NCBI GenBank assembly: GCA_014905635.1
Contig: JABVCE010000005.1
Location: 124,001 to 188,000, forward strand
Length of the DNA: 64,000 nucleotides
Reading direction: 5' to 3'
Source of the DNA: Scenedesmus sp. PABB004
Lineage: Eukaryota
Shown one piece after another: positions 1 through 26,081 of the stretch. A program made the position numbers and the translations under genes. The notes beneath the pieces were generated by a model that was not told the DNA's origin, searched no databases, and saw nothing but the letters and a program-made list of their open reading frames with translations. Within the stretch, counting starts at the first letter, position 1; each line of letters opens with the position of its first letter.

Positions 1-684
1 GCGGGGCGGCCGCCTCGGGCGACGCCGCGCCGCCGCGCCGCAGGCGGCCGCCCGCCCTCCTCGCGCCGCGCCTGGTCGCGAGCGCGTCGGGGTCGGCCGC
101 CGTGTCGGCGCAGCGCCGCTTCTCGAGGCTGGACCGGCAGCTCCTGCGGGCGGGCGGGGGCGACGGCTCGGTCGGTCGGCGCGCGGCGCCGCGGCCGCCC
201 TGCCCGTAGGCGCGGCCGCCGCCCGCGACGCCCCGCGCGGCTGCCGCCGCCGGCGCCGCCGCCGCGCACCGCTTGGTGCCCTGGAAGCTCTGCAGCGTCT
301 CCAGCTTGCCGCACTGCTGGCAGAAGCGGTACAGCTGCGCGCCGCGCCCCTCGCACATCACCGCGTCGGCCTGCGCAGCGAGGCGGGGCGGGGCGCGGGG
401 CGCGGGGCGTGAGCGGGCGGCGATGGCGGCCAGGCGCCCCTGGCCGGCGCCGGCGCGCGGCGCGCGGTCGCCGCGCGCGCCTTGAGGTGCGCCGGGCAGA
501 CGCGCTTCTTGAGGCAGTACGCTCGTCCCACGGCCGTCAGGTCGACGGAGCAGCCCACGATCTTGCAGCGCTTGCTCGCGCACGGCGCTGGCGGCGCGGC
601 CCGGAGCGCCGCCGCCGCCGGCGAGGACGGCGGCGCCGCCGACCGCGCCCCCGCGCCGCTGCCGCTGGGCTCCGGGCTCGACAT
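1..684 (-). CDS. SBP-box (SQUAMOSA promoter-binding) transcription factor; 5' part only, runs off the window start
   Basis: Exons 684-481, 370-270 and 143-<1 splice to CKIVGCSVDL...YCLKKRVCPAHLKADAVMCEG...RFCQQCGKLETLQSFQGTKRSCRSSLEKRR, the SBP zinc-binding signature. Intron 1 has a GC donor. Confidence 0.9.
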
Positions 685-1632
685 CTTCAGCGTGGCGCCT
701 GGGCGCGCGGCGGAGAGGGCGGCGTGGGCGCCAGGGGCGGGCCAGCTGTCGCATGCAGGGGCCAGCGTTGTGCGCCGCCGTGGCGAGCCGCCACCCCCAG
801 CTGCGAGGCCAGCGATGGCGCGTGCGTGCCAACTGGCGGCGGCGCACCTGGGTCAGTGCGCGCCGCTCGCGAAACTGGTTCTGGCTAGCCCCCCCGCCGT
901 GCGCCGCGCCGCAGGCCGCCGCCGCTGGCAGGGCTGCGTCAAGCCCGTGCGCTGCTGGGGCGAGCGCCTGGCCAGCCCGGCGCCGCGCGGCCCGCTCGAG
1001 CTGTGCAGCCTCGGCCGCGACCGCGTGCGCGGGGCTGCGCAATCCGCGACCGCCAGGCGGCGCCTCGCAGGGGGGGACACTGGGAGCGGCGCCGGGGGGC
1101 GGGCTCGCTTGAGGAGGCCGCGCGGCGGGTCGAGCGCGAACTTGGGGGCGAACGAAAACTTCTGCCCAGCGCCAGCGCTCGAAAAGCCGCTCGCCCTGCA
1201 CAAAAGATTGGAAAGGTTCAAGTAGAGCTCAGTGCGACCGCACGATTGCGCTTCGGGGCTTTCTCAGCGCCATTCCCACTCTAGCCGCTCAACGCGCGCC
1301 ACGGCCCGCCAGAGCGGCTGTTTCAATGTGCCCAGCCTTTTGTGCGCTGTTGCGCGCCCGCGCAGGCCGCGCGCGCGCGCCCGCAGCTGACGCACAACCC
1401 CAAGGCGCTGCTCTGTACCCGGTTCCCTCATTTTTTGGGGTCGCCCTGGTCCGCACGCGCCAGGGAGACGTCAGGTCCCGCAGGCTACGCCCGGCGAACG
1501 TTTCAGCCGGCGAGGGGCCGTGCCCGGCGCACGGCGGCGTCGCTGCTGCACGCACCTTGCCGCCGCAAGCCCTGCGCGCCGCGCGCGGGGCGTACCGCGG
1601 CGCTGTGGCACGTACTGATCGCGCCACGCACG

Positions 1633-4600
1633 ATGGGCGCCGGCGCGCACCCGCCCGACGGCCGCATGGGCCGGGGGAGCGGCGCCGCGGCGCTCCTGCT
1701 GCTGCCCCTGCTGCTCGGGCTGGCCTCCGGCGCCACCACCGAGGCCTGGCGCTCGCGCACGGTGTACCAGGTCCTCACGGGTGCGCGCGGCGCCCGCGCC
1801 GACCGGCGCGGCCCGCCCCTGGGCAGCGGGCCCTGGCGCGGCGCGCGCGCGCGCGTGCGGCGCGTTCCGCGCGGGCCCGCCGCCGCCTGCGCGCGCCGCC
1901 GACGCCGCCGGGGCCGCCCGGGGCCCGCGCGCCCGCGCAGACCGCTTTGCCACCGACGTGTGCTGGGGCGCGAGCGGCGGCAACCCCAACCGCTACATGG
2001 GCGGCACGTTTGCGGGGCTGCGCAAGCGCATGGACTACATCAAGCACATGGTACGTGCCGGGAGGGAGGGAGAGGGGGATGCCTCGCCGAAACGGCCCGC
2101 CCCGCCCCGCGCCGCGTGTGGGCGGGCCGGGGCGCGGGGGCGGGCGCGGCGCACGGCGCTGCCCGCGCGCCGCGCCGGCCCCAACGCGCGCCGCGCCGCC
2201 CGCCGCAGGGCTTTGACGCGGTCTGGTGGTCGCCGGTCATGGCGCAAGGCACCGACGCCTTTGACATGAGTGAGCGCGCCGCGCCGCGCCGCGCGGCCGC
2301 CTGCTCCGGCGCGGCCGCCGCCAGCCCTGGGCCCCCGCGGCCCCGGCGGCCCCGGCCGTCGCCCCCGGCACTCACCTCTGCGCCCCCCCCCCTCCCGCAC
2401 CCGCTCACGCAGCCGGCTACGCGGGCTACTGGCCGGGCGACTTTTACGACATCAACCCCGCGTTTGGCACCAAGAGGGAGCTGGTGGAGCTCGTGGACGC
2501 GTACCACGCGGCCGGCATGTTTGTGCTGTTCGACCTGGTCATAAACCACGTCGGCTACGGCGTGTGGGAGTCCTACAGCCCCTTCAACAAAACAACAGAC
2601 TTCCACGACTGCAACGGCGCGTGCCGCGGACGCGGCCGGCAGCGCCGCCGGGCGCGCGCGGCGCGGCGCGCGGCGTGGCGTGGCGTGGCGTGGCGGGCGC
2701 CAGCCCACGCCCGCGTCGGCGCGTCCCGTGCACGCGCGCGCGCAGGCTGCTTCACGCTCAACTGCGAGCCCGACCCCGCGGGCGCGTTCTCAGCCGGCAA
2801 CGTGAGCATGCACTCGTTCGAGCACTGCAAGCTCTCGGGCCTGCCAGACCTCAACCACAGCGGTGCGCCCGCGCGCCGCCGCTGGGCGCCCTGCGCGCGC
2901 GCGACACGCCGCGGCCGGGCCGCCCCGCGGCCGGGCCGCCCCGCGCGCGCGCGCCGCCACGCGCGGCTGACGCCGCATCGCGCGCGCGCTGCGCGTGTGC
3001 TGTGTGTGCTGCGCACGCAGACGCGTCCATCCTGGAGCGCATGGTCGCATGGCAGACGTGGACGCAGAAGACCTTCAAGCCAGACGGCCTGCGCTACGAC
3101 GCGGCAACCAACTCCCTGCCCGTGCGCGCCCACGCTGCGCGCGCGCGGCGCAGCCGCGGCCGGGCCCCGCCCAGGCCGCGCAGCGCGCGGGGTTGGGGTC
3201 GACGGGCCGGCCGCCGCCCACGCGCCGCCGCCGCCCGCCGCCCGCCCGCCCGCCGCGCCCGCCCGCCGCCCGCCCCGCGCGCGCGCGCGCGCGCGCAGTC
3301 GTTTGTCGCCGCGCTGACGGAGGCCGCCAACGGGACGTGGACCATCGGCGAGCTCTTCCTGGAGGACCCCCTGGCTGAGAGCGACGCGTACATCGCGGCC
3401 TGGATCAAGCGCAAGCGCGGCGCGCACAGCGCGTTCAGCTTCCCCATGCAGCACGCGCTGCGCCTCGCCATCGGGGTGCGCGCGCGGCGCGGGGCGCGCC
3501 GCGCCGCGTGCCGCGCGCCGTGCCGCGCTGCGTGCTGACGCGCCGCGTGCGTGGCTGCGCCGCGCGCCGCGCGCCGCGCCGCAGGCGGCCAACCACAGCA
3601 TGGTGTGGCTCGCGGAGCAGCGCGTGGCGCACCTGCAGCGCTACGGACCGACCGTGCACGACCTGGGCGTGTTCATCGAGAACCACGACATGGAGCGCTG
3701 GCTCCACGACTTCCCAGACGTCAGCAGATACATGTGCGGCTGCGGCCGCGCCGCCGCCGCCCTCTGCGCTCCCGTCGCCCACTCCCCTCCCTCTCGCCTA
3801 GCTCCCCTCCCTCCTCGCCTCCCTGCCGCGCCCCCGCGCCCCGCGCGCCCTCCCCCCTCCGCAGGAACGGGCTGGCCTACGTGCTCTTTGCCGAGGGCAT
3901 CCCCTTCATTTACTACGGCGCGGAGCACGGCTTCACCGAGGAGCGCGCGCCGCTGTGGCCCACGCGCTTCCAGCACAACACGGGGCTGTGGCTCTTCATC
4001 CGCATCAGCGTTCACTACCGCCGCGCCGCGGAGGTCTGGGACGCGGGCATCGCGGCGACGGTGCACGCCGACAACCACACGCTCGTGCTGCGCCGCGGGC
4101 CGTTTGTGCTCGCGCTGACGTCGGCCGGCGAGCGCGGCGGCGGCCTGCGCGGCGCGTCGATCTCGCTGCCCCGCCTCGGCGGCGGCCTCGGCGGCAAGAC
4201 GCTGCGCAACATCTACGACCCAGAGGCACGCGCGGCCTGCCTGCGCGCGGGGCTCAGGGTTCAGGGCGGCGGCGCGCGGCGGGGCTTGGCGGAGGCCGAG
4301 GCTCACCCCGGCACGCGCCGCGCCGCGCGCCGCGCGCAGGACGTGCTGCGCGTCAGCGCCGGCGGCGTGGGCGTGTTTGTGCCGTCGGGGGACGGCCGGC
4401 CGCAGGTCTTCTACGACGGCCCCGTGGTTGAGCCGATGAGCCTCTACATCCCAACAAAGGTGTGTGTGGCCTGTGTGGCGCTGGTGACCGCGCGGCGCGA
4501 CGCACACGCGGCGCGCGGCGCGCGGCGCGCGGCGCGCCGCGGCCCGGCGCTGAGTGGCGGCGGCGCGGCCCTGCCCCGCGGCCGCGCGCGCGCTTGCAGG

Positions 4601-7600
4601 ACCCGTCGCTGCGGCTCAACCTGCTGTTCATCACCTTCCTCGCGCTGCTGCCCGCCGTGGTGCTGCTCGCGCTCGTGCTCGCGCACTGCTGGGCCGCCAT
4701 GGCGCTGCGCCCGGGCGGCTGGCGCGGGCTGCCCTGTTGCGGCTGCGCCGCGGCTCCGCCGCTGCACGGCGCGCCGAGCAGCTTTACCGACGGCAAGGCG
4801 TTTGCGGCGGAGGAGCCCTCCCAGAACGGCACGCGGCGGGGCGTGTGGCTGCCCCGCCTGCTGCGCAGCTCGGGGCGCAGCCGCGGCGGCGCTGACGGCG
4901 CCGCCGACGCGAGCGACGGCAGCGACCAGGTGGACGTGCACCTGGAGCCGCCCGTGTCGCGCAGCGTACTGCACGGCCAGCTGCACGCGATGTCCATCCG
5001 CCAGGCGCTCGCGGCCGGCAGCGTCGCGCACTCTGACCGGCGCGCCCCGAGCGCCCAGTCCGGGGCGTCGCTGCCGAGCCGGCTCGAGGCCTTCTCCGGC
5101 GCCAGCAACGTCTTCCGCCACGCCGGCCAGGTCTCGGCGATTGACCTCGCGCAAGGCCTCGTGCTCGAGGACGGCGAGCGGCTCTCCGCGTTTGCCGCCG
5201 CCGCGGGCGTCGCCGACAGCGACAGCGTGTCGTCGCGGCCCCCCAGCAGCATCCAGGTGCGCCGCGCGCGCGCGCGCCCGCGCGCGCGCGCAACCCACGC
5301 CCGCGCCGCCGCACGCCCGCGCCCTCACCGCGCCGCCGCCGCGCTCTCACAGCGCCGCGGCGCATCTGCGCGCGTGCGCTCGCAGATCGGCAGCCCCCGC
5401 GGCGGCCTGCCCGGCGGCGTCGGCGGCGGGCGGCTGAGCAGCATGACCATCATTGCCGGCCTCGCCGCCCGCCCAGACCGCGGCGCCGGCGGCGCCGCGT
5501 CGCCGCCGGCGCCGCCGCGCCCGCCCCCGGCGGCGCCCCGCGCCGCGCCCGCGCCCGCCGGCGGCGGCTCGGTCGCGGCGTCCACGTGGGCCAAGCTCGC
5601 GGGGCGGCTCTCGCCCGTCGGCAGCTCGGGCAGCGGGTCGCGGCGCTCGGGCGCCGGCGTCGGCGCGGCGGTGCCGCCGTTCGATGCCTTCTCCACGCCC
5701 ATCCTGCACGTCGCGCTTGAGTACAGCCTGCCGCACCTGGGGCTGACCAACCAGCTCATGTTTGGGGGGCTCGGCATGGTCGTCGACACCTTCCTCCGCG
5801 AGTGGCCCGGCCCGCTGTCCCTCATCGCACCGCTCTATCGCCCCTGCTACGAGCCCCTCCCCGGCGCGCCGCCGCCCGACGGCGCCGCCGGCGGCGGCGC
5901 CGACGCCGGCGCCGGCGCCGCGCCCGGCGGCTGGCGCGGGCTCGTGCCGACGGTGCTGCCGCCGGGCGCGGCGCCGCTGCTGGAGATGACCGTGGACGTC
6001 GCGGGGTGGCAGCTGCCGGTGGAGGTGTTCAAGCTCGAGGCGCCCGTGGCGCCCGGCGGCCCGCCGCGCACATATTACCTCGTCCAGGCGGAGCTCTTTG
6101 CGCGGCGCCGCCGCGGCGACATCTACGCGTTCACAGACGAGGACGAGATGCTCACCTGGCTCGCGGTGAGGCACGCGCACGCGCGTGCGCGCGCGGCTCA
6201 GGCAGTTGCGGCGCCGGCGCCGGCGGCGGCGGCGGACCTGGGGGCTCCGCGCGGCGCGCAAGGCCGCCGCGCCGGGCCGCCGCGCCAGGCCGCCGCGCCA
6301 GGCCGCCGCGCCAGGCCGCGCGCCGCGCGCCGCCCACCGCGCGCCGCCCACCGCCCGCTGCCCGCCCGCCCGCCCCGCAGGTGTTCAACCAGGCCGTCGC
6401 GGCGACGATCGTGGCGGAGGGCGTGACGGCGGTGCAGCTGCACGACTACCACGGCGGCCTCTCCCTCTGCTACATCCCGCAGCGCCTGCAGCCCGCCGTG
6501 CTCTACGTCGCGCACAACGCGCACTACACCGCCGCGTTCGCCATCCCCACGCCCGCGCGCCGCAACAAGGTCCGCGCCGCCGCGCCACGCGGCGCCGCCG
6601 CGACCGCCACGGCCACCCCGCCCCGCGCCATGCGCTACGCCGCGCCGCGCCCGAGCCCGAGCCCCGCCGCCGCCCACCGCCGCACGCGCCGCGCAGGTGT
6701 ACCAGCACCTGGGGCTGAACGCCGAGGCGCTCGCGCGCTTCGTTGAGCACAACGGCTGCCTCGACATGCTCGCCTGCGTCATACGCTACCTCCGCACCCG
6801 CCAGGAGGGGCGCGGCGCCGTCGCCGTGTCGCCCAGGCGCGCGCCGCCGCGCCCGCGCCCGCGCCGCCGCCCCGCGCCGCCGCCGCCCCGCGCCGCCGGG
6901 CGCGGCGCCCACACGCGCCGCCGCACGTGTGGCGCCGCAGGTACGCGAGCCAGATCGCCAACAAGCTGAGCGTGTTCTGGCAGCTCGCGCCCGCGGGGCG
7001 GCCGCGCCACATCGGCGGCGTGCTCAACGCGCTGAGCATGGCCGACAGCTTTGCGGCGAGCGGGCTCTCCACGGACGCGGTGCTCGCGGCCAAGGCGGAG
7101 GCCAAGGCGTGCCTGCAGGCCGCGTACGGCCTCGCCGTGGGCGACAACTACACGCTGCTCACCTTTGTGGGCCGCGTGACGCACCAGAAGGGCTGCGACA
7201 TCATCGCCGAGGCACGCGCACCACAGCACAGCGCAGCGCGGCGCAGCGGCCCGCGGGGCGCGCGGCGCGGCGGCCGGCGGGGCGCGCGGCGCGGTGGCCG
7301 GCGACTCGCGACCCCCTGCGCGGCGCCCTGAACGCCAGCACCGCCGCGCCTCGCGCCGCCCCGGCGCTCCGCAGGCCGCGCCGTACATTATGTCCCGCCA
7401 CCCCACGCTGCAGCTCGTGTTTGCGGGTGCGCGCGCGCGGCCGGGGCGCCGCCGCGGCGCGCAGCGCGCCGCACGCCACGCGCCGCGCGCCACGCGCGGC
7501 GCGCCCCGCCCTCATGCCTCGTCTCGCACCCCTCACCCCCTCTTGCAGGCCCCACCGGCGACAGCGTCGGCGCCGCGGCCGCGTCCAAGCTGGCCGCGCT

Positions 7601-10600
7601 GGCGGAGCGCTACCCAGACCGCATGTACTGCCCCCAGGCACGCCCGGGACCGGGGGAGGGGGGCAGTCCGCTACTGCGGACGCACGCGCCGCCGCGCGCC
7701 GCCGCGCGCACACGCGATGCCACCAAACCGCACTTCACACCCCCAACTAAATGTCTCACCAATACTCAACCACCACCCGCCCGCCACTCCGACCAACCAC
7801 GCCAACCACGCTGCAACAACAATAACAGGACTACTACGTCGCGGGGGACGAGAAGCACATGATCCTCTCCGCCACCGACTTTGCGCTCGCGCCGTCGCGG
7901 TTCGAGCCGTGCGGGCTCGTGGACATTGAGTTTGGGTGGAATGCGGGGCTCATCATCGGCCACGACACCGGCGGCCTCGGCAAGATGCCTGGGTGCGGAC
8001 CGCGAGCCGCGGACCGCGACGCGGCGGACCGCGGCGCGGACTGCGGCGCGGACCGCGGCGCAGACTGCTGCGCGCGGCGCGCGGCGCGCGGCGCGCGGCG
8101 GACCGCGGCGGACCGCGGCGGCATGCGCGGCCGGGGGCGGCGCACGCGCCGGGCGCGCCCCGCCGGCCGGCCGACCCGCGCCGCCGCCGTGTCGCGCCGC
8201 CGCAGCGTGTACTTTGACGCGCAGGCGAGCCACCTGTCGCACCTCGCGCGCAAGCTGGAGGAGGCGGTGGACGGCGCGATGCGCCTCACGCGCGAGCAGC
8301 GCGCCGCCATGGCGGGCGAGGCGCTCGCGCGGCGCTTCCCGGCGGACGCGATGATGGAGGCGTACGCCGGGCACTGGGCCCAGGTGCGGCGCCTTACCGG
8401 GGGCCGCAGGCAGTGCTCGCCCGCGCACGCGCGCCCGTCCGCGCCCGCCCGCCCACGCGCGCCCGCCCGCGCACACCCGCGCCGCGCCGCGCCGCGCCGC
8501 CGCGCCGCCGCAGATCCACGCCGCGCACTGCAGGGCCGCGCGCGCGCGCGCGCGCGCGCGCGTCGAGGCGCTGCACGACCACGCCGCGTTCTTCGCCTCC
8601 AAGTGGGCCCAGGTCAACCTCAAGGCCGCGCGCCCGCCCGCGACGAGCGTCGGCGTCGGCGGCGGCTGCGGCGCGAGCGACGCGGCCGAGGCGGTCGCCA
8701 AGGCCGGCAGCGCCGCCGGCAGCGCGGGCCCGCTCGGGGGCACGATCCGGCTCCACCCCGCGCCCGGCAGCGCCGCCGGCGGCGCCGCCGGCAGCGAGTA
8801 CGCCGCGTCGCACCTGCTCACCGTGGGCGGCCCGCCGCCGCCGCCGCGCTGGCGCGGCTGCCGGCCGCCGCCGTGGCTGCGCAGCTGGCCGGGCGCGGTG
8901 CGCCTGTCCAACTACCTGCTGGTCGTGCAGCACCACGCGGGGCTGGGCCCGGGCGTGATGCTCTGCACCTTCTTCCTCCTCGAGGCACGGGGGAGGGGGG
9001 GGGGGGGGGGGGGGGGAGGGGAGGGGGGATGGGGGAAGGCAGGGGACCCGCGCGACCAGCGCCCGCAGCGCCCGTGGTGGCTGCCGGCTGCAGCAGCAGC
9101 CGCAGTGCGTGTGCGTGCCTCCAATCTTGACCGCGCCTGCCCGCCGCCCCTGTCCCTGTCCCTGCCCCTGCCCTCCCCCCCCCCCTCCTCTCAGGCGATC
9201 CGCATCGACGAGTACCACCTGGTGCGCCGCCTGCCTGCCCACGGGGGGCAGCACGGCGCCAGCAACGCGCCAGCGCTGCGGCCGCGGCGGCCGCCGCGCC
9301 GCGCCGCGCCGCGCCGCCGCCTCCAAACCCTCACCCGGCTGCCGCCGGCCGCCGCCGCCCGCGTGCCCCCCCCCCCCCCGCAGTGCGGGCTGTACGCGAC
9401 GGTGCCGCGGAGCCTGAACCTCGCGACCGACCTGTTCCGCGTCCCCGTCACGCAGGGCCTGCTCGCCAAGCTCATGCTCTACTTCCTCGTCGCCTCGGGT
9501 GAGCGCGCCGGGCACGCAGCACACGCAGCACACGCAGCACACAGTACAGCACACGCACGCCGGGGGGCCGCACGCAGCAGCGCGCGGGCAAGACCGCCGC
9601 GCCCGCGCCCGCGCCCGCGCGTCCGCAGTGTGCGCGCCGTTCTGGTTCTGGGTCGCCGCGGTGCTGCGCCCGCGCGCGTACATCCGGCTCTCCTCGCTCG
9701 CCATGCTCGCCAGCTGGCTGCTCGTCTTTCTGGGCATCCGCTTCAGCGACCTGCTCGGCATCGTCGTCGTCCCCGTCGCGGCGGCGAGCCTCGTCGGCAG
9801 CCCGCTGCTCTCGCTCGGCTTCCTGGGCGAGGACGACGTCGAGGTCTCAGAGGTGGGGCGGGCGAGCAGGGTTTAGCTAAAGCTAAAGCCGCGCGGGCCG
9901 CTCGTCAGCGCGGCAGCAGCGCCGCGCGCCCGCCCTCTAGCCGCCCTGCCTCCCCCCTCCCCGACCCCTCACCGCCGCGTCGTCCGCCGCGCCCGCGTCC
10001 GCGTCCGCCGCGCCGCGTCGCCGCGCCCGCCGCGTCGCAGGTGGGGCGCCAGATGCTGGCGCTGTCCGAGGTGACCAAGTACTCGCTGCTCGCCCTGGGC
10101 ATGCTCTTTGCCTCGGTCGCGACCAACGCGGACCTGCACCAGGCCGCCGTCGGCGTGGGCATGTGCTGGAGCGGCGCCGTCGCGGCGTGGTTCTGGTACC
10201 CCGCCTCCCTCTCCGAGGCGTACCGCCACCTCGCGCTCACGTACAAGGGCCAGAAGCGCCTGCTCAAGCACCTCGCCTGCTTCTGGCTCACCCTCGTCTC
10301 CGCGGCGTGCGACTCGCTGTCCTTCATGCTCGTCGGCTTCATGGTCCTCCTCGTCAGCAAGAGCCTCGACGCCTTTGCCTCGTTCCAGGCGGTCGTGTTT
10401 GGCGGCTGCGCCGCCGCGGTGCTCTGGAACTTCCTGCTGCTCCGCAGCCGCACCGCCGAGCTCCGCCTCACGCGCACGCTGCTCGCCCTCGCGGCCATGC
10501 CCGGCTACGAGCTCGCCAAGGCCGCCCTCGTGCTGGGCCTCGGCTACGAGGGCACGGCGCCGGTCAACGGCGCCATCTCACGTGCGCGGAGCACCGCGCG

Positions 10601-11320
10601 GCGCACACCGGCCTGTGGCGCGGCCCGCCGCGCCGCCGCGCCGCCGCCGCGCCGCCGCGCCGACGCCCGCCCTGCGCCGCCCCGCCCCGCGCCGCGTGTG
10701 CAGCCGTGCTGCTGGGCGTGGCCGCGGCGCTGGCCACGGTCATGGGCGGCCGCGACAGCGTGCAGGGCCTGGTGCGCCGCAGCCGCGCGCGCCGCGCGCC
10801 GCCGCTGCCCCGCGCCGGCGTGCGTGCTGCGCACGCTGCGGGCGCCGCGGGCGCCGCCGAGCGCGCGCTCTCTCTCCCTCTCTCTCTCCCTCTCTCTCGC
10901 GCGCGCAGGTTGGCTTCCTGACGCTGCCGTCGCGTGAGGTGGTGTCCATGTGGCAGATCATCGCGATCATGCTCGGCGTCAGTGAGTCGCCGCGCCGCCA
11001 GGAGGCGCCCGCCGCCGCCCGCTGCTGCGCAGCGTGCACCGGTGGCGCGCAGCGGCCGGGGCGCCGCGCCCGCGCGCCGGGACCCGCTGCGCGCGCGTGC
11101 GGCGCGCCCACCAGCCCACCCGCCAACCCGCCTGCGCGCGCGCGCGCGCGCAGCCACGGCGCTGCTGCTGATCGGCATCTCCTACGCGGCGTCCATCCTC
11201 GGCGGTGCCACGAGCGCGACTGTGCTCCTGGTCATCGTCGCGGGGCTGGAGGTGCTGCGCGCGGCGTGCATGTGGGGCATCGCCCGCCGCTTCCCGGGGG
11301 AGAATCTCAGCGCGCCCTGA
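1633..11320 (+). CDS. Alpha-glucan synthase-like multidomain protein (signal peptide, GH13, TM, GT5, multi-TM); Ags1/Mok1-like architecture, ~1913 aa
   Basis: 27 exons: 1633-1780, 1941-2050, 2209-2269, 2413-2616, 2746-2862, 3021-3121, 3299-3475, 3585-3733, 3865-4225, 4340-4459, 4600-5256, 5386-6165, 6381-6569, 6697-6836, 6941-7211, 7375-7426, 7549-7637, 7829-7992, 8206-8383, 8514-8984, 9195-9221, 9384-9498, 9629-9852, 10041-10569, 10704-10771, 10909-10981, 11154-11320. Total 5742 nt with all phases compatible. GH13 motifs: YQVLTDRFA, DLVINH, LPDLN, GLRYDA, IGEL, FIENHD, GIPFIYYG. GT5 motifs: FGGLG, HDYH, HNA, FVGRVTHQKG, PSRFEPCGL, TGGL. Alternative start at 1666. Confidence 0.88.
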
Positions 11321-12292
11321 GCCTGCGCTGACGGCGGCGCGCCGCGTGGCGCGCCCCCGTGCCGTGGCGGTGGACTGGCTCGGTGCGCCTCTGTCGTGTG
11401 AACTCCCCAACCTGTGTGCCGCGCGCTGTGTGCTGGCGCGCGGCGCTGACCACGCACACTGCGTTCGTGGGCTGTGCCTGTGACTCTGTGTTCGCGAGCT
11501 GGCTTCAATCCTTGCCAACGCAAGACAAACGATTCCACCTCAGGGCTGGCTGTGTTGCGTGTGTGCGTCGTGGGCGCGCGCATCACGTCCACGCGAGGCA
11601 GGGGTGCGTCCGCACTGACAATTGCTTCTGCGTCCCAGTGCGGCCAGGCCGCGCCAGCAGCCAGGCAGCGCACCCTCGCATTGCGCCTGGGGTCAGAGTG
11701 GTCGGCCGAGCTGGTTCTGCGCGCAGGTTTCGTTGCCGGGGAGGGGAGGCGGCTCACAGAGCCCCTGGGCAGCCGTGCAGCCGTGCACGGGGCGGGGCTT
11801 GGTCAGGGTCCGGGTCTGCGGGAGCCAAGGAGAAAGTCAGGCAGGCATGGCTGCCACTTCAAATGACAATAAGAAGGGATCAGGGGGGAGGGTCGAACGG
11901 ACGTTGCGTCGGGCTCGGGCTCTCTCTCTGGGCGCGAGCAACGCATTGCTGCTCGCGCCGTGGGGCGCTGCGGGCAACCACAGGCTGGGTGCGGTGTGAG
12001 GCTGGCTGGCGCACGCAGCTGCCTGGCGGTGCTGGCTGAACACAGGCAGCAAGCTGCGGTGCTCACAGCTGCGGTGCAGGGGTCTGCGTTCGCGGCAGCA
12101 AGGGGTATGCGGCGTGCGCTAACAGAAAGGGGAGGAGGCTGTCAGACTGTCAAAGCGTGTGTGGCACGCGCGGGGCGACGGTGAGGGAGGGGAAGGGGTC
12201 CAATTGCAGGCCCGCCGCCAGCTGCGGCGAGCGCGTGTGAAAAACTCGAGGGGGCCCAACTGCGCGCCCGCGCCGCGCCGCCGCCGCGTCTC

Positions 12293-13261
12293 TCACAGGT
12301 CGGGCGCGGCGCCGCCGTACGCGCCCGCGCCGCTGAACGCGCGGCCCAGCGCGCTCAGCCAGTCAGGCGGCGCCGCGCCGCCGTCGTCGCTCGCGCGCTC
12401 GCGCCCCGCGCCCCAGCCGCCGCCGTCGTCGCGGCGCGCGGCGGCGGCCTGCCGCTGCTCCTGCTCGCGCCGCGCCGCCTCCCACTCGGCCCGCGCGGCC
12501 GCCGCCTCGGCCGCCAGCGCGCGCGCCTCGAGGCGCGCGAGGCCCTCGTCGCCGCCGCGGCCCGCGTCCGGCGCGTGGCCGAGGCCCCGCACGCCGCCCT
12601 CCTCCCTGCTGGGGACGTCTGGGTAGGGCCGGGGCGCGCCCTGGTCGCGCCCGCCGCCAAACGGGTTGCTCAGCACGCCCGGCGTGCGGCTGGCCCCGCG
12701 CGGCGCGTCCTCGGGGCGCGCACGCACGTCGGGCGCGGCCGGCGGCGCGCCCTGCGCGCCGGGGGGGGGGGGGGGGGCGGCGACGGCGGGCCCGGGGGCT
12801 GTCAGGCAACACTCCGACAGGCGCTGTGCACCCAACGCGCCCCGCGCCGCACCTCCGCAGCGAGCTCGGCCTTCAGCGCGTCCAGCCGGGCCGCCGCCTC
12901 GTCGCGGCTGCGCACGCCCATGGCCGTGCCCTGACCGCCGCCGCGCAGCGCGCCGGGCGGGTGAAAGTCGGGCGCCGACAGCTGCGCGCGGGCGGGGCGG
13001 CGCGGTCGACGGAGCGGCGCTGCCGGGCTGCTGGCGCTGGCCGCCAGCGGCCCGCGCGGCCGCACCATGACCGGCGCCGAGGGCGCGTCGGCCTCCTCCT
13101 CATCGCTGTCCGGCAGCGGCCGCCCGTGCACCGCGACGCGCACGCCGTGGCCGCCGCCGCCGCCGCGCGCGTGCTCCGCCGCCGCGCGGGCGATCTGCTG
13201 CCGCGCGTATGCGTCGCGCGCGTCCTCCGGCGCCTTGGCCGCGCGCGCGGCGGGCCTGCTG

Positions 13262-13301
<40 letters not shown>

Positions 13302-14008
13302 TGCCGCCGCCGCCGCCCAGGCCCAGCATGCCCATGATGCCTCGCCCCAGCGCTGCGACCACCTGCGGCGGCGCGCGGCGCATTGACGTCGGTGCCGGGC
13401 CTGCGGGCCGCGCAGCGCTCGCGCGGCGCCCACGGCCGCGGGCGCGCAGCGCGCGCGCGCTGCGCCCAGGCGCGGCGGCTCACGTCGCCCGCGTCTGGCG
13501 CGCGCATGGGGCGGCTGTCCGCGACGTGGAAGGGCGCGTGGCGTGCGAGCACCGCCTCCAGGTGCTCCAGCTCCTCGGCGGGCGTGCCTGCGGCGGCGGC
13601 GCGGGTCGCTCGCGAGCTGCGAGCTCGCGCGGCAGCGCGCCGCGCGCGCCGCGCGTGTGCGCGCGTGCCTTTGGGCAGCGTGACGGCGATGAAGGCCTGC
13701 GCGTCGGTGTCGTCCACGCCGGCGAAGATGAACGTCGGCGCGCCGTGCCGGTCGGCGGTGCGCAGCACGTGATTGACGGCGGTCACCGGCCAGCGCAGGC
13801 GCGCGCCCACGCTCGCGTCGAGGCGGCCGGGGCCACCGCCGCCGCCGCCGAGCGAGAGCACGAGCGGCGCATCGGCGGCGAGGCGCTCCTTGCGCCCCCG
13901 AGCGACGCGGGAGGCGGTCACGGGGCTGCTGGAGACGAACACGCGGCGTGCGCCGGCCTCCTTGAGCCGCGCCGCGTCGGCGTGCAGGCGCTCGAGCGTG
14001 CTGGCCAT
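12293..14008 (-). CDS. Hypothetical protein, spliced (about 4 exons)
   Basis: ATG at 14008 (MASTLERLHADAARLKEAG...PTFIFAGVDDTDAQAFIAVTLPK). Coding-like exons with GT/GC-AG boundaries end in ...YGGAAPDL* at 12293. No family recognised. Confidence 0.6.
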
Positions 14009-14328
14009 GGCCTGGGCTGGGCGGGCTCTCGCGGACGAAGATCGCGCGGGGGCGGCGGCGCGGGCGCTCTGGGCGGGCGGGGCCGGCGCGAGAGGTCCGC
14101 GGCCGCGGCGGGCGTGACGTCGTCGTCGCGCTTCAACGGCGCCGCTCGCGCGCAGGCACAACCGCTCACGGCTGCATGAACGCGCTCAGACCAGCCACGC
14201 GCGCGGAAAGGGGCGGGGCGCGCTGCCGCTGCAGCCGCCGCCACCCGCTGCACACCCCCGCGCCGGCGCTCGCCGCACATATGTGCGGCGAGGCCTGTAT
14301 ACAGGCCTTGCCGCCGCCGCCGCCGCCG

Positions 14329-14909
14329 CTACTTTTTGAGTCGCCGCGCCGCCTCCTCTGCCTCCTGCATCTTCTTCAGCTCCTGCGCAAACTCCTCCCG
14401 CATCTGGCGCGGCGGCGGCGGCGGCGCGTGAGCCGGCCGTGCGAGCCGCGAGCGTCGCTCGGTCGCTGCCGGCGCGCGTCTCGCTGCGCCGGGGGCGGTG
14501 CGGACGGCCCACCTTGGCGGTGTAGGTCTTGGCCTTGTCCATGATGCTCGACACGTGCTCGTCCAGCACCTTGCTGTGGTCCTTGCCTGCGCACGCGGGC
14601 GCGCGGGCGCGCGGGCGCGCGGCGTGGGCGCCCCGCGGGCGCACGCAGACACGGGCAGCCAGGCGGCGGCACCGCGGAAAAGCGGCGGCACCGCGGAAAA
14701 GCGGCGGCACCGCGGTCGGGCGGCGCGGCGGCGCGGGCGGCTGCGGGCGGCGGGCCGCGGCGGGCCGCGGCGGGCGCACTCTTCTCTGCGGCCTCCTTGG
14801 TCAGGCGGTGCGTGAAGACCGCGAAGCGCTGGAACCAGCGGCTGTTGGCCAGCGTCTCCACGAGGACCTGGTTGAGCATGTGATCCATGAGGCGCTTGAA
14901 GAACGCCAT
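14329..14909 (-). CDS. Small (~90 aa) conserved protein, possibly NCBP2-AS2-like/mitochondrial
   Basis: Three exons: MAFFKRLMDHMLNQVLVETLANSRWFQRFAVFTH...|KDHSKVLDEH...|MREEFAQELKK...LKK*. The LVExLAxS..xRxA pattern resembles the NCBP2-AS2 family (from recall). Confidence 0.65.
14663..14715 (+). repeat. 19-bp intronic tandem repeat GCGGCGGCACCGCGGAAAA, ~2.8 copies
   Basis: Directly visible. Confidence 0.85.
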
Positions 14910-15377
14910 GGCCGCCGCCGGCGCGGCGCGGCGGGCGCTGCGCCGCCGCGGCCGCTGCTGCTGCTGCGCCGGCGAGCGCCGGCTGGCCGGCGCTCTGCTA
15001 GCGCTCCCTCACGCCCGGCACTCCGGCCCGGCCCCGGGCGGCCCAGCGCCCGCGATTGGCGGGCGTGCGCTCGGCCCGCGAGGTCGCAGGCCGCGGAGGG
15101 CGCTGGAGGGCGGGCGCGGGCGGGCGGGGCGTCGGGATGCGGGGCGGGTGTGGCAGCACGCAATTGAAGTGGCGGGGGCAGGCCGACCGTGGCGCACGCG
15201 GCGGCAGCGGCGCAGGCGGCGCCGGAGCCCTGACGATGGCCGCTCGCGACGGGCTCCGCGGCGCCGGGCCCGCCAGGGCCTCCACGGTGGCGAGTGCTGC
15301 CTGCGTCGACGGCGCCGCCAGAGGATTGGAGAGTGTAGTAGTCTGCGAGGGAGCGGCTGGCCGGCAGCCCGCGCGGC

Positions 15378-16589
15378 TCAGCGGACGGCCGGCTCGCGCG
15401 CGTCGGCGCGGCGCCAGTCGCGCTGCGCGGCGCTCCAGGCGTAGCGCGCCTCGGCGCTCGCGGCGCGCCGCGCGGCAGAGTCGGGCTCCTGCGCCTCCAG
15501 CAGGAACGCCAGGCAGCGCCGCATGTCTGCGCCGTGCGCGGCCGACCTCGGCGGCCGGCCGGGGCGGCCGGAGCCGCCGCGCGACCCGCGGCACGCGGCG
15601 CACCGTCTGCAAACCAGGGCGGCTCGTGGCGCGGGCTGGTGCTCATCACTGACAGCAGCGCGTCGTCGGGGAGGGCGAGCAGGCGCTCAAAGCCCAGCGC
15701 CTCCCAGCTGGGCACCACGGGGTCGAACGCCGGCAGCACGAGCTGCTGCCGCGCGGCACACCACATGTTGACCAATCTGCTGCCACAGGAGCCCCTGGCG
15801 GCGGGCGGGCGGGCGGGCGGGCGGGCGGGCTTCGGCGGGCGGGCCGCGGGCGGCGCCGCCGCGCGGCGCCCCTGCGGCGTGCCTGCAGTGCTGCGCCGCA
15901 AAGCGCCGCGCCAGCTCCGGCCCGCGCGCCGCAAACGTCGAGGGGCGCGGCGTGTGGGTGGCGGTGTCGAGCGCCAGCGCACACGCGCGGGGCCGGCCGT
16001 CCGGCGCCGTGTTGGCGGCGCTGACGCAGCAAAGTGCGAGCTCCACGGTCACGTCAGGAAGTGCGGCCACCGCCGCCAGCAGCGCCTGCGCGGTCGCGGG
16101 GCCGAGGCCGCGCGGCTCGGCGAAGCCGCCCGCCATGAACAGCGCCGGCCGCCGCATCGCGCGCAGCAGCTGGCTGCCCAGCAGCGCGAGGTCGTCCGCT
16201 GCGAGGGCCGAGTCGAGGTGCGCTGCGGCGGTGCACGGGCGCGCGGGTGGCGGCGCCGTCGGCGCGCGGCGCGCGCGGCGGCGACGCTGTGCACAGCCGA
16301 CGCCTGCAGCTCGCGCACCCGCCCACACGAGCTTCGTCTCCCGGCACGCGGCGACCGCGATCACGCACGTCGTGGCGTCCTGCGAGCCCACGACCAGGCC
16401 GGGCAGCTGCGCCGCGTCGACGGCCGCGCACTCGCCCTGGAGCAGGCAGAGCGATGGCGCGTCCGGCGGCGGCGGCGAGCGCTCCGCGCTCTGCAGGAAT
16501 GCCGCGCACGCCGCCGCCAGCGTCGGGTGCTCCAGGACGGCGTCGAGCGAGAGAGCGTCGTCCACGGGCTCGCCCCCCACGGTGATCAT
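15378..16589 (-). CDS. NTAN1: Protein N-terminal asparagine amidohydrolase (N-degron pathway)
   Basis: Motifs LLQGE, VGSQDATTCVI, AHLD and STSPRHEPPWF. ATG at 16589, stop at 15378-15380. Confidence 0.88.
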
Positions 16590-17128: not shown

Positions 17129-19076
17129 TCACTTGCTCGGCACCTTGGCGCCCGTGGTGGGCAGGCCGGCGGCGACCTTGAACGCGTCGTAGATGCCCCA
17201 CTGCGCGCGGGCACGGACAGCGCGGACGACGCGGCGGCCGCGTGAGCCCCGGCGCGCGCGCGCCGCCCCTGCTGGCCCCCTCCCGCGCCGCGCCGCGCCG
17301 CGCCGCCGGCGGCGCCAGCCCGCGCGCGCCCTCCGCAGCGCGCGCGCGCGTTCGCCTTGCCTGCAGGCCGGTGAGGGTGCCGATCATGATGATGCGCAGG
17401 CCGAGGCCGCGCGTGAAGAGGGCGTACCACCCCATCTGGCGCACGATGTCGCCCGCGGTCGCGCCCTTCTGCGCGTTGAGCTTGGACACCAGGTTGTCGG
17501 CGGGGTGGCTCACGACGGCGCAGAACACGCCCGCGATGTAGCCCGCCGCAAAGCTCACGGTCAGCTGCTCGCGCTTGGTGCACTGCTCGCGCGGCTTGGG
17601 CACCACGTACTTGTACAGCGCGACGACGGTGTTCTCAAACGCGCCAAACTTCATCATCGTGTAGGGAATCTGGCGGCACCACAGCGGCACGAGGCTCTTG
17701 AACAGCCTGCGGCGCGGGAGGCGCGCGCGCGGCGCGGCGCGGCGCGCGGGCGGCATGCAGCGTCGGGCGGCGTGCGGCGGCGTGCGGCGGTGTGCGGTGG
17801 CGGCGGGGTGGCCCGAGCGGACGCCGGGCGGCAAGCGCGCGGCGCGGCGCGGCGCGGCGCGGCGCGGCGCGGCGTGGCACGCACGTGCCGAAGCCCTCCT
17901 GCTGGATGAGCTTGGGCATGCCGTCGGAGAGGCCCTTGGCGAAGCCGGGGCGCGTCTGCACCGCGACCTTGACCGCCTCAAAGGGCGAGAGGGCCATGTC
18001 GGCAAAGAACTCGGCGCTCGCGCTGCCGGCGAGGAAGATGACGGTCTGGTACTTGGCCACCAGCTCCTCGCCCGCCATGTCCGCGTACGTCCTGCGCGGG
18101 CGCGGCAGGGCGGGAGGGAGCGAGCGCGGGAGGGAGCGAGGGAGGGAGTCAGCGAGGGCGGGCGGTCGCGGGGGGCGTGTGGGCGCGGGCGGCCGCCACG
18201 CGCCGGCGCGCGGCGCGGCGCGGGCAGGCTCAGGGGCAGGCGAGCGGTGGTGAGGGGGTGCGCAGCGCTAGGCAGCGCTAACGCGGGGCCTCACTTCTTG
18301 AAGTACTCGTACAGCCCAAACTTGAACGCGCCCTGCGCGCTGTAGCCGAGCAGCGTCGGCAGCCAACCGCGGAACAGCCCCGCCGCGCCCTGCTCCTTGA
18401 GCAGCACGCTGAAGCCGGTGCTGATGCCCTTGTACTTCCCGGGGTCGGTCTGGATGTTGCACTTGACCACGTCCAGCGGCGTCACGGCCGTGTGCGTCGC
18501 GCCGCCTGCGGAGCGCGGGCGCGCCGGCGTTCGAGGGCGGCGGCGGCGGTCAACGCGGGCGCGCCGTGGCCCGCGCGTCGCGATGCGGGGCCCCCCATGC
18601 CGCGCCCCCGGTCCCCCGGCGGGGCGCCGGCGCGCTGCTCGGGCGCTAGGGCTGCTGCTCGGGCGCTGCCGGGGCGGCGCGGGCGTGCGCCGCGCCCCCG
18701 CCGCGACGTGGGACGCTGCTGGGCCGCGGCCCGCCCCAGATCCGGCGCGATCGGGTCGCCCGGGCGCTCCTGCGCCGCGCCCGGGCGTGCCGGCCGGCCC
18801 GCCCCGGCCGCAACCGCCGCGCTCACAGCTCACGACGCCGCCCAGGGCGCAGGTCATGTAGTACTCCGGGCTGTACATCTTGATACCGCCCTCCGCGGGC
18901 GCGGGTGCGACGACCGTGCTGCTGCGCGCCAGGCTGTTGCCCATCGCGCTCGCGATCGCGGCCGGCAGGCTCGCGCCCGGCGCCTGCTGCTCGCGGTGCT
19001 TGCTGTTCATGCTCGCCAGCGCCGCGCCAAACGGGCTGGCGCCGCCCCAGAGGGCCGCGAGGGGCTGGGGCGCCAT
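17129..19076 (-). CDS. MPT: Mitochondrial phosphate carrier (SLC25A3/MIR1 family)
   Basis: YYMTCALGGVVSC, THTAVTPLDVVKC, GWLPTLLGYSAQGAFKFGLYEYFKK, SASAEFFADMALSPFEAVKV, PLWCRQIPYTMMKF, SHPADNLVSKLN, RIIMIGTLTGLQWGIYDAFKV. Confidence 0.95.
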
Positions 19077-24795: not shown

Positions 24796-25303
24796 GCCGC
24801 GCGCGGCGCGGCGGCACGCCGCCGGGAAGGACGAGGGGCGCGGGGGCCTCACATGGCGGCCGGTGGCGGCGGCGGCCGCCGCACGGCCGTGCGGCGGGGG
24901 CGCACCGGGCGCGCGAGCAGCGGCGGCAGCGGCAGCGGCGCGCGACGCAGCAGCGGCGGGGGGAGCCGGCGCAAAGGCCTGCCACTGGGCGAAGGTGTCG
25001 GGGGTGGGGAAGCGGAACCGGGCGCCAGCGCAAGCCCAGACAGCGGCAGAGCAGCGGACGCGGTTCAACTCAAACGCAGCAGCTCCCTCCACGCAGCTCG
25101 CGCCGCGGCGGCACTGCGCGCTGCCCGCTCATCGCACACCCCCGGCCAGAGACGCCGCACGCCCGCCCCGCCAGCACGCGGGCCGGCAACGCCAACAGCA
25201 GCGCCCGGCGCCGACCCCGCTCCCGCCGCCCGCGCCGCCGCCGCGCCGCCCCCGCGCCCCTGCGCTCGCGCTCGGTGTGGCGGGGCGCGCCGCGTGGGGC
25301 ACC

Positions 25304-26081
25304 ATGCTGGCGCCCAAGGTCATCAAGGACCTCACGCGCGAGCTGCAGCAGCTCGCGACGAGCGCGGAGGTGCAGGCGCTCGGCATCCGCGTCACGCTCA
25401 ACGACGCGGACGTGACCGACATCGCCGTCGAGCTGGACGGCCCGCCGGGCACGCCGTACGAGGGCGGCACGTTCCGCATGCAGCTGGCGCTGCCGCCCGA
25501 CTTCCCGTCGGAGCCGCCAAAGGGCTTCTTCACGACCAAGATCTGGCACCCCAACGTCTCCAAGAGCGGCGAGATCTGCGTCAACGTCCTCAAGCGCGAC
25601 TGGAAGCCCGACCTCGGTGCGCCGCCGGTCGCCCGCGCCGCGCCGCGCCGCGCCGCGCTCAGAGCGGCGGCCGACGCGCGCCGCCGCCGCCCCCCGTGTG
25701 TCCCCCCCCCACACACACGCACACGCACACACGCACACACACACACGCACACGCGCAGGCATCCGGCACGTGCTGCTCGTCATCCGCTGCCTGCTGATCG
25801 AGCCGTACCCCGAGTCGGCGCTGAACGAGGAGGCCGGCAAGGCGCTGCTGGAGGACTATGCGGCCTACGCGGCCCACGCGGCGCTCATGACCAGCCTGCA
25901 CGCCGGCGGCGCGGCCAAGCGCGGCGTGCCGCTCAGCAGCAGCGGCGCGCACAATGCGGGCAGCAGCGGCGCCGGCGGCGGCGGCGAGCCCGGCGGCGAG
26001 GGCTCGCCGGCGGTGAAAAAGGCGCGGCCGGAGGCGCGGCCGGCGCTCAGCAAGGCGCGGAAGAGCCTCAAGCGCTTGTGA
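25304..26081 (+). CDS. UBE2S: Ubiquitin-conjugating enzyme E2 S (UBC22-like, K11 chains)
   Basis: Exons 25304-25616 and 25759-26081. [53 protein letters not shown] and basic tail KARKSLKRL*. Confidence 0.95.

Follow-up and report, generated by a model that had tools for sequence, protein, structure and literature searches.

Alpha-1,3-glucan synthases (Ags) are regarded as a fungal speciality and as an antifungal target, and an apparent gene with their module order in the green alga Scenedesmus sp. PABB004 raises the question of whether it is a single gene, whether it came from a fungus and what its product would do. We analyzed a 64,000-nt stretch of this genome, hereafter the window, in which tblastn found one copy of the Ags-like gene. 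The full coding span occupies positions 1633..11320 of the + strand, on which all features described below also lie, and its stop codon is at 11318-11320. The span is defined by an exact letter match, in 26 exons, to a deposited protein of 1955 aa ("mok12 [Scenedesmus sp. PABB004]", here P0001) and by an independent gene model. A sequence-only reading of this DNA had proposed the order signal peptide, GH13, transmembrane (TM) helix, linker, GT5 and multipass membrane domain, and this order was borne out by the P0001 map and by domain searches. Several lines of evidence, presented below, make it quite probable that the locus is a single real nuclear gene of Scenedesmus sp. PABB004 encoding an Ags-type membrane enzyme with three modules that belongs to an old algal branch. 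The novelty in green algae claimed by the same reading holds for the literature, in which our search found no paper on such an Ags-like enzyme in algae, but NCBI already contains the protein under an automatic name, "mok12".

At the N-terminus, a Kyte-Doolittle scan identified a hydrophobic stretch at residues 15-36 (1675..1740), a putative signal peptide, which the PDB alignment pairs with the leader sequence of a secreted amylase from a fungus. The GH13 alpha-amylase-type ectodomain that follows (residues 37-555, exons 1-9, 1741..4602) was recognized by Pfam (PF00128, E 8.4e-35), by PDB matches and by its position in a tree. In the alignment to PDB entry 6sau (E 8.1e-57) the motifs DlviNH, GlRyD, GElf and NHD are aligned and the catalytic Asp/Glu/Asp positions are retained; the algal module thus carries NHD and other canonical amylase motifs, whereas Penicillium Ags has NQD. 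The best PDB matches are the fungal amylases 6sau, 3vm7 and TAKA-amylase 2guy (E 8e-57 to 1e-37), which differ from the algal protein in having no fused TM helix, GT5 or membrane domain. The single TM helix (residues 559-581, 4612..4680) comes straight after GH13 and is the highest hydropathy peak of the protein (2.96). A TM helix was found at the equivalent place in five of the six GH13-bearing algal-type proteins scanned, the exception being P0002. P0001 has no large extracellular region between the GH13 core, which ends at residue 555, and the TM helix, which starts at 559-562; fungal Ags, in contrast, have some 450-600 aa there (455-611 aa in the 10 fungal-clade proteins scanned; in P0031, for example, GH13 ends at 525 and the TM helix lies at 1069). 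The helix leads into a low-complexity linker (residues 582-892, 4681..5742) that is presumably cytosolic and has no conservation in the multiple alignment.

In the GH13 tree the algal modules fall in a 13-row group (support 100) together with stand-alone eukaryotic alpha-amylase-like proteins, their neighbours being the Stemphylium CBM20 protein P0163, the chytrid P0166 and EukProt P0160 and P0161; the tree was built without CAZy subfamily references, and its groups were named post hoc, after the tree had been seen. A single clade of algal and fungal-Ags GH13 was rejected (dlnL 104, AU p 2e-6). The earlier reading of a fungal-type Ags architecture needs correction for this GH13 lineage and for the missing spacer of about 500 aa. 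The algal and the fungal enzymes probably acquired their GH13 modules in separate events.

While its GH13 is not of the Ags lineage, the algal protein resembles fungal Ags (Ags1/Mok1 of S. pombe, AgsA/B of Aspergillus and Penicillium Ags, P0007) in module order, in a GT5 that belongs to a shared eukaryotic clade, in a remotely homologous membrane domain and in an E-x-L/I-x-x-P ending. The algal proteins are smaller, at about 1500-1950 aa versus 2200-2450 aa. The GT5 (GT-B) glucosyltransferase domain, residues 893-1445 (5743..8666), was delimited by the jackhmmer domain map, Pfam and motifs. Pfam places Glycos_transf_1 at residues 1211-1331, and the orthologue P0006 matches Glyco_transf_5 (E 1.2e-9); HDYH, GRxTxQKG, PSRFEPCGL and TGGLG align with E. 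coli GS, and the fold of an orthologue's GT5 model matches GBSS and GS. The score of this domain against Ags-type GT5 is about 183 bits (33-35% identity to proteins of 2200-2450 aa), versus 70 bits against E. coli GS and 50 bits against GBSS, which places it much nearer to the Ags type than to glycogen or starch synthases; the earlier view had set it apart from plastid starch synthase. The Ags-type motifs noticed at that stage recur across a 42-sequence alignment. One motif differs: the algal GT5 has PSRFEPCGL, as does glycogen synthase, whereas fungal Ags has PSRDEPFGL. GlgA, GBSS and SSIV share the GT-B fold and catalytic motifs with the algal domain but are soluble and carry neither GH13 nor a membrane domain, unlike the multi-domain, membrane-embedded algal protein.

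The GT5 tree comprised 79 eukaryotic Ags-like rows and 12 bacterial GlgA as the root, with plastid starch synthases left out. All 79 eukaryotic rows, the algal GT5 among them, form one clade to the exclusion of the GlgA outgroup (support 100, stem 1.27). Within it the 13 algal-type rows make up a clade of their own (support 99), outside a group of 62 rows (support 98) that consists of the fungal proteins and a set we call clade B, which includes the EukProt transcriptome protein P0066, the JGI metagenome proteins P0058 and P0159, and P0030, P0075 and P0051.

GT5 is connected to the membrane domain by a bridge (8667..8888, inside exon 8514-8984) in which the alignment reveals a conserved F(F/Y)AxxW stretch. 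The C-terminal multipass membrane domain (approximately residues 1520-1955, 8889..11317) has a predicted MFS fold and ends in ENLSAP. A sequence-to-profile search of this domain with jackhmmer recovered 23 of 158 proteins, all of them algal-type, with no link to fungal Ags; the best blastp match of the C-terminal part had an E value of only 0.043, and Pfam searches at E<=10 with three membrane-domain proteins and one window exon returned zero family matches. Comparison by hhalign with the tails of 14 fungal-length Ags gave a probability of 95.9% (E 6e-9) over 332 collinear columns that extend to both C-termini at 15% identity, and the named Penicillium Ags is included in the match. The score was 78.8, versus 20.0 with the template reversed, 25.4 with the query reversed and no more than 31.2 in 20 block-shuffles, and the probability in these controls was at most 4.9%. 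Judged by these profile alignments, the membrane domains of the algal protein and of fungal Ags are remotely homologous. A terminal E-x-[LIVM]-x-x-P is found in 14 of the 23 algal-type matches (the other nine include short fragments and P0019, in which the membrane tail is incomplete) and in 16 of 63 other long-tailed GT5 matches, Penicillium Ags among these. ENLSAP had been described as a fungal-like ending; ExLxxP does recur in the 42-sequence alignment, and in the window the stop follows directly.

The AF2 model of the membrane domain alone, which represents a 54%-identical fragment rather than the window's own protein, has a pLDDT of 90.0 and a pTM of 0.88, and a model of GT5 plus membrane domain has values of 86.4 and 0.83. 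The membrane model matched 87 chains at Z>=8, including the MFS proteins Spns1 (Z 29.2, rmsd 3.8 A, 377 residues aligned), VAChT (29.1) and VMAT2 (28.9), and its best Foldseek match was VGLUT2 (E 1.8e-6), with Foldseek TM scores of 0.6-0.66 for its matches. The domain is predicted to adopt a 12-TM MFS fold. Its likeness to MFS transporters (Spns1, VMAT2, VAChT, FLVCR, NorA and LtaA; Z 23-29 over about 350-380 residues) is one of predicted fold only and not of shared function, with sequence identities of 6-13%.

These modules can be assembled into a working scheme. The signal peptide would place the active-looking alpha-amylase-type GH13 outside the membrane, the single TM helix would cross it, and the disordered linker and GT5 would reside in the cytosol, followed by the 12-helix-type membrane domain with its predicted major-facilitator fold. 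GT5 would synthesize an alpha-glucan from nucleotide-glucose, the presumed sugar donor; the membrane domain would deliver this glucan, whole or as short pieces, to the exterior, where GH13 would join or trim the pieces by transglycosylation. The linkage of the product could be alpha-1,3, alpha-1,4 or mixed. According to PMC12305055, a make-export-remodel scheme of this kind has been put forward for Ags1 of fission yeast.

The gene might instead be real and yet make no wall or extracellular glucan, for example with GH13 facing an internal lumen, or with a weakened GT5 and an MFS-like domain that carries small malto-oligosaccharides; we consider this improbable, though it survives better than the other alternatives. 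One argument for it concerns the N-terminal K-x-G-G-L motif, whose Lys has a role in nucleotide-sugar binding. This residue is kept in the bacterial GlgA analyzed and in Penicillium Ags but is replaced by M, T or Q in the algal proteins, and for that reason donor use or activity may be different. The remaining catalytic motifs of GT5, however, are intact and invariant in nine of nine algal proteins. A GH13 of ordinary amylase type and an MFS fold, typical of small-solute carriers, would also fit this reading, as proteins with such a fold generally transport small solutes, not long polymers, through an alternating-access mechanism, and we know of no wall chemistry for the Ags-like gene of Scenedesmus. 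Set against this is the retention of the three-module fusion in two green-algal classes and family-wide, which points to a coupled make-export-remodel function.

The 25 introns of the deposited model range from 104 to 215 nt (median 143), with GT donors in 20 and the rarer GC type in five. A dynamic programme that used coding potential and splice signals, and no homologue, arrived at the identical start and stop and at 26 exons, with five splice choices differing from the deposited model. The intron between GH13 and the TM helix (4460..4599, 140 nt, GT-AG, gtgtgt...cag) is exact in both models, as the sequence-only reading had placed it; exon 3865-4459 ends in ...IPTK and the next exon begins DPSLRLNLLFITFLALLPAVVLLALVLA. 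The support for this join consists of one predicted 140-nt intron and the conservation of the join in other gene models. That the link hangs on one predicted intron, that GC donors are present, that long open frames occur in every frame of such GC-rich DNA, and that the models of two algal relatives each lack one module would all fit a chimeric model, in which the annotation and our own gene model wrongly joined two or three separate genes, one for a secreted alpha-amylase and the rest for a glucan synthase and a transporter.

We nonetheless regard a chimera as very unlikely. The linker-GT5 and GT5-membrane junctions are independent of splice calls because each lies inside a single exon: exon 5386-6165, 100% identical to P0001, spans the linker and the N-terminal half of GT5, and exon 8514-8984 is a single open frame from the conserved post-GT5 "FFASKW" into the hydrophobic helix with which the membrane domain begins, as expected from the stop-free junction reported earlier. 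Without splicing, the frame of exon 3865-4459 remains free of stops to 5437 (ORF 3539..5437), and a separate amylase gene would therefore have no nearby stop. GH13, GT5 and membrane domain also occur together in separately annotated proteins of Tetradesmus obliquus (in a model without TM1), Micractinium tetrahymenae and Elliptochloris bilobata, and P0011 and P0014, like the Micractinium and Elliptochloris proteins, combine GH13, TM, GT5 and membrane domain in a single chain. The contigs that carry these relatives are 1.6-8.8 Mb long. The pairing of GT5 with the membrane domain is common to the whole family. The Scenedesmus NREL 46B-D3 model has no GH13; this and the Tetradesmus model indicate that some algal models are incomplete or different.

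The single spliced gene proposed in the earlier reading stands, although its count of 27 exons and about 1913 aa departs from the 26 exons and 1955 aa of the deposited model. A candidate extra GC-AG intron of 114 nt (4226..4339) can be removed in frame, and its donor, gcacgc, is the same as at two annotated introns. Its removal would delete 38 aa, all of which are missing from the Tetradesmus orthologue. Splicing here is plausible from these comparisons and would bring the gene to 27 exons and 1917 aa, near the earlier count.

By phylogeny, the algal proteins constitute their own deep, old branch of the Ags-like family and not a recent fungal import. The description of the protein as fungal-type, in the sense of derived from fungi, is not supported, given the position of the algal GT5 clade outside clade B and the fungal group. 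The genomic context is algal: exons near the gene encode SBP-domain, tubulin, kinesin, E2 and mitochondrial-carrier proteins, SBP being a plant and green-algal domain, and GC content is 72-83% over the first 16 kb of the window, the Ags-like gene included. These algal-type neighbours make contamination unlikely, as the first reading had held on the strength of host-style introns. Fungal contamination, or a horizontal transfer by which the alga recently took up an AGS gene from Dikarya, would account for an architecture otherwise known from fungi and for fungal amylases as the top PDB matches of GH13, but is extremely improbable given an algal clade that does not fall within the clade containing Penicillium, 25 short GC-rich introns typical of the window, the neighbouring SBP-domain gene, the absence of the fungal spacer, and the location of P0001 on a 1.63-Mb contig with orthologues in four other chlorophyte assemblies on contigs of 0.15-8.8 Mb.

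A broader reading, which we hold tentatively and at slightly less than even confidence, is that core chlorophytes possess an ancient, non-fungal lineage of GT5-plus-MFS-fold synthase/exporters that gained its ordinary alpha-amylase as outer module independently of fungi. The "fungal" Ags architecture would then be one of several convergent assemblies built on a common eukaryotic GT5-MFS core, and the algal product an undescribed extracellular or wall alpha-glucan. From the algal branch one would expect wall or slime alpha-glucan in Scenedesmus, Tetradesmus, Micractinium and Elliptochloris, which would bear on the harvesting, digestibility and symbiosis of much-used microalgae. Little is understood of the Ags membrane domain and of the export step, and a PDB search found no Ags structure; the algal branch offers a simpler natural machine for comparison, with a canonical amylase, no spacer and a confidently predicted MFS-fold domain. 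If the broader reading is true, the MFS fold would imply that Ags-type glucan is exported by an alternating-access carrier and not by a channel like that of cellulose synthase. Aureobasidium Ags2, which by description has the same family and build but belongs to the fungal clade, is reportedly required for pullulan synthesis (PMC11449735, PMC11640504), and Ags-type enzymes would therefore not be bound to pure alpha-1,3 wall glucan.

In clade B, GT5 is paired with a membrane tail that is homologous to that of fungal Ags (hhalign 95.5-100%). Its GT5 is closer to the fungal than to the algal clade, and it lacks the terminal E-x-[LIVM]-x-x-P motif. Three of its members, P0058, P0066 and P0159, have an amylase-type GH13 and short GH13-GT5 spacing, as in the algae. 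The comparisons suggest that the GT5-MFS pair is the conserved core of the family and that GH13 modules were added to it more than once; in P0051 and P0077, both of clade B, GH13 is placed after the membrane domain.

A homologue-free gene model, obtained by dynamic programming over splice sites with a self-trained codon table, defines one gene on the + strand with an ATG at 1633, a stop codon at 11318-11320 and 26 exons. The exon at 5386-6165 is 100% identical to the deposited protein "mok12 [Scenedesmus sp. PABB004]" (P0001; 1955 aa, on a contig of 1,630,490 bases), whose sequence is reproduced exactly by 26 exons of the window. The deposited and homologue-free models disagree at five splice choices only, and the window holds a single copy of this gene, whose architecture resembles that of the fungal alpha-1,3-glucan synthases (Ags). 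The sequence-only reading had proposed 27 exons and a protein of ~1913 aa. An extra in-frame GC-AG intron at 4226-4339 is a candidate; its removal would eliminate 38 residues that are absent from the Tetradesmus orthologue and bring the gene to 27 exons and 1917 aa, in near agreement with that count. The junction that the same reading had named between the glycoside hydrolase (GH13) domain and the transmembrane (TM) helix is exact: ...IPTK / intron 4460-4599 / DPSLRLNLLFITFLALLPAVVLLALVLA. The other two joins do not depend on splice prediction, because each lies within one exon: 5386-6165 joins the linker to the glycosyltransferase (GT5) domain, and 8514-8984 connects the conserved stretch after GT5 with the first hydrophobic membrane-domain helix.

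The 25 introns of the deposited model are 104-215 nt long (median 143), with GT donors in 20 and GC donors in five. The GC-donor introns start at 2617, 6837, 7212, 7638 and 8985, and the candidate at 4226 is also of this type; three of these six sites read GAG/gcacgc. The GC donors are either a genuine feature of this alga, whose DNA is very rich in GC, or the result of a flaw in the gene model.

Pfam scanning of single exons was too weak to be useful (a family was reached by 1 of 24 exon translations), and the deposited protein was therefore scanned instead. Its matches were Alpha-amylase (residues 46-383, E 8.4e-35) and Glycos_transf_1 (residues 1211-1331); Glyco_transf_5 was reached in the Elliptochloris orthologue (E 1.2e-9), and no Pfam family was found in the membrane domain. 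The hydropathy profile shows a leader at 15-36, an isolated and very strong helix at 556-592 and, between ~1580 and 1944, several clustered helices. In the PDB, the GH13 domain comes closest to alpha-amylases secreted by fungi (6sau, E 8.1e-57; TAKA-amylase 2guy, 1.1e-37), and the alignment retains the four amylase regions (DlviNH, GlRyD, GElf, NHD) with the Asp/Glu/Asp positions filled. The GT5 domain scores just ~70-75 bits against E. coli glycogen synthase, with which it aligns at HDYH, GRxTxQKG, PSRFEPCGL (identical) and TGGLG. The lysine of K-x-G-G-L, which we take to be a sugar-nucleotide binding residue, is kept in the Penicillium Ags and in all 10 of the GlgA N-termini from bacteria in which the motif is seen; the algal proteins have M, T or Q at this position.

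Word-index searches returned five named chlorophyte proteins, the window's own included. The other four are from Tetradesmus obliquus (1513 aa), Scenedesmus sp. NREL 46B-D3 (P0005; 1192 aa, without GH13), Micractinium tetrahymenae (1642 aa) and Elliptochloris bilobata (1752 aa). P0005 carries repeated "STGAFIL" units at residues ~780-850, ahead of the membrane domain; this run and the missing GH13 part probably reflect a gene-model or assembly problem. The same searches yielded one named fungal enzyme, an N-terminally cut alpha-1,3-glucan synthase of 2264 aa from Penicillium chermesinum. An exhaustive HMMER search with P0005 as the query recovered 2494 proteins at E<=1e-3, of which 104 reached E<=1e-30. 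Matches in two stretches came from about a dozen proteins of algal type; below them ranked proteins of 2200-2450 aa whose GT5 lies at ~1230-1650 (E ~1e-49, 33-35% identity). When domains were mapped on 158 proteins, 142 carried GT5, 42 carried GH13 and 23 carried the algal membrane domain.

The GT5 phylogeny comprised 91 rows, which did not include plastid starch synthases, and was rooted on 12 bacterial GlgA from named genomes. In these quick trees, which carry SH-aLRT support only and include four unstable long-branch rows, all 79 rows from eukaryotes fall into a single clade (support 100, stem 1.27). Within it the algal-type proteins stand apart (13 rows, support 99), and the remaining 62 rows (support 98) consist of the clade containing the Penicillium Ags (33 rows, support 100) and 29 rows of other eukaryotic GT5-membrane proteins, which we call clade B. 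One clade B member (P0066) comes from a EukProt transcriptome, and two (P0058 and P0159) come from JGI metagenomes, where they are labelled "glycosidase/glycogen synthase". The placement inside the eukaryotic clade agrees with the earlier proposal that the GT5 domain is Ags-like. An origin by fungal contamination, against which the earlier reading had also argued, or by recent fungal import was rejected on the algal-type neighbours, the introns, the GT5 tree position and the scale of the contigs, which is megabase for three of the four named orthologues (that of Scenedesmus NREL 46B-D3 is 0.15 Mb). The alternative of a plastid starch synthase was rejected on the presence of a signal peptide and a TM helix, with GlgA as the outgroup.

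The membrane domain is remotely related to that of fungal Ags. Neither blastp nor jackhmmer linked the two, and the relationship was detected by hhalign only. A profile of 11 algal tails matched one of 14 fungal-length tails with a probability of 95.9% (E 6e-9, score 78.8) over 332 collinear columns that reach both C-termini. Control scores were 20.0 with the template reversed, 25.4 with the query reversed and no higher than 31.2 for 20 block-shuffled templates, all with probabilities <=4.9%. The two groups have a C-terminal ending in common, which together with the profile match supports the Ags affinity claimed for this domain. The terminal E-x-[LIVM]-x-x-P is found in 14 of 23 algal-type proteins (the other nine are short fragments, except P0019, in which the membrane tail is cut short) and in 16 of 63 other long-tailed GT5 proteins, the Penicillium Ags among them. 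Clade B tails matched the fungal tail profile in all five subgroups (95.5-100%); against the algal tail profile, subgroup B1 reached 61% and the other four <=13%.

Predicted structures give the membrane domain the fold of major-facilitator (MFS) transporters. We folded P0010, a membrane-domain-only fragment of 433 aa with 54% identity to the window's protein over that part, and obtained a model with pLDDT 90.0 and pTM 0.88. Against 48,161 representative chains, all top matches of this model were major-facilitator transporters, with 87 chains at Z>=8: Spns1 (Z 29.2, rmsd 3.8 A, 377 aligned), VAChT (29.1), VMAT2 (28.9) and FLVCR2 (27.9), with the lipoteichoic-acid flippase LtaA at 23.3. These values are far higher than the stated background of ~13-14 for helical bundles. 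Foldseek was concordant (VGLUT2, E 1.8e-6, TM 0.63; also G6PT1, sialin and FLVCR). A second model, of the algal-type protein P0012 (GT5 and membrane domain, 1001 aa, 42-row alignment), had pLDDT 86.4 and pTM 0.83; the GT5 portion of this model resembles GBSS and glycogen synthases in fold (6gng, E 1.7e-18). Queries with an algal and a fungal-length protein found no Ags chain in the copy of the PDB searched, and a literature search found no title or abstract that describes the Ags membrane domain as MFS.

The GH13 domain probably has a different history. The sequence-only reading had treated it as part of a fungal-type architecture, but it does not group with the GH13 of fungal Ags. A GH13 tree of 36 rows puts the five domains from algae inside a 13-row group (support 100), together with three clade B proteins and with amylase-like proteins that stand alone (one with CBM20 from Stemphylium, one from a chytrid, two from EukProt and one more), and the GH13 domains of the fungal-Ags type form a separate clade. 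Forcing the algal and fungal-Ags domains into one clade cost 104 log-likelihood units (AU p 2e-6), and forcing all GT5-linked GH13 domains together cost 120 (p 8e-7), for groups that were named post hoc from the same tree and with the fungal Ags GH13 on a long stem. The spacing differs as well: 455-611 residues separate the GH13 core from the TM helix in 10 fungal-clade proteins, whereas the algal proteins have 7-80. A permuted architecture is seen in P0051, P0077 and P0037, in which GT5 comes first, a membrane domain with homology to the tail of fungal Ags (98.8%) follows and GH13 stands at the C-terminal end. Since clade B tails match the fungal profile even in this GH13-last subgroup, GT5 plus the membrane domain looks, from sequence comparison, like the constant core of the family, to which GH13 modules would have been attached more than once.

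The predicted topology puts GH13 outside, a single helix across the membrane, the linker and GT5 inside, and an MFS-like domain with both ends inside. By analogy, this arrangement fits the working model outlined for fission-yeast Ags1, in which GT5 starts from a primer to make chains that are extruded by the membrane domain and then joined by GH13 on the outside (PMC12305055). The MFS fold of the model suggests that export may be of the carrier type and involve short chains. Because an ordinary amylase that has all its catalytic residues forms the outer module and GT5 keeps the PSRFEPCGL motif of glycogen synthase, an alpha-1,4 or mixed product is, judging from these motifs, as open as alpha-1,3. 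Ags-family enzymes have also been tied to pullulan in Aureobasidium, in the accounts of PMC11449735 and PMC11640504.

The earlier view that such an enzyme is uncharacterised in green algae holds to the extent that a literature search found no paper on a green-algal Ags-like enzyme, a search in which the comma in "alpha-1,3" and noise from genus names may hide papers. The main text of a Scenedesmus maternal-wall proteomics paper mentions neither mok12 nor amylase nor glucan. The gene itself is already in NCBI, under the automatic fission-yeast name "mok12".

G+C content is 72-83% in 1-kb steps across positions 1-16000, and this extreme composition leaves long stop-free frames in all frames of both strands, so that lists of open reading frames are by themselves nearly useless in the window; the true frame is marked by third-position GC near 100%. 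No Rfam families were found in the window. Pfam matches to exon-sized open frames across the window include an N-terminal asparagine amidohydrolase (15774-16223, -), a mitochondrial carrier (17361-18506, -), an EngA-like GTPase (21336-22010, +), tubulin (22683-24831, -), a ubiquitin-conjugating E2 (25262-25678, +), GT92 (26356-27426, -), DUF218 (29632-30096, +) and kinesin (33947-35140, +), none with an obvious tie to glucan metabolism. Several long frames at 35.7-63.2 kb that score strongly as coding lack a Pfam match at E<=1e-4; the frame at 39506-42064 (+) is among them, and one such frame encodes 853 aa. On the other side of the synthase gene, an exon with a SQUAMOSA-promoter-binding (SBP) domain (5-481, -; E 1.2e-7) lies head to head with it, ~0.9-1.1 kb from the ATG at 1633, and the two genes may have a divergent promoter in common.
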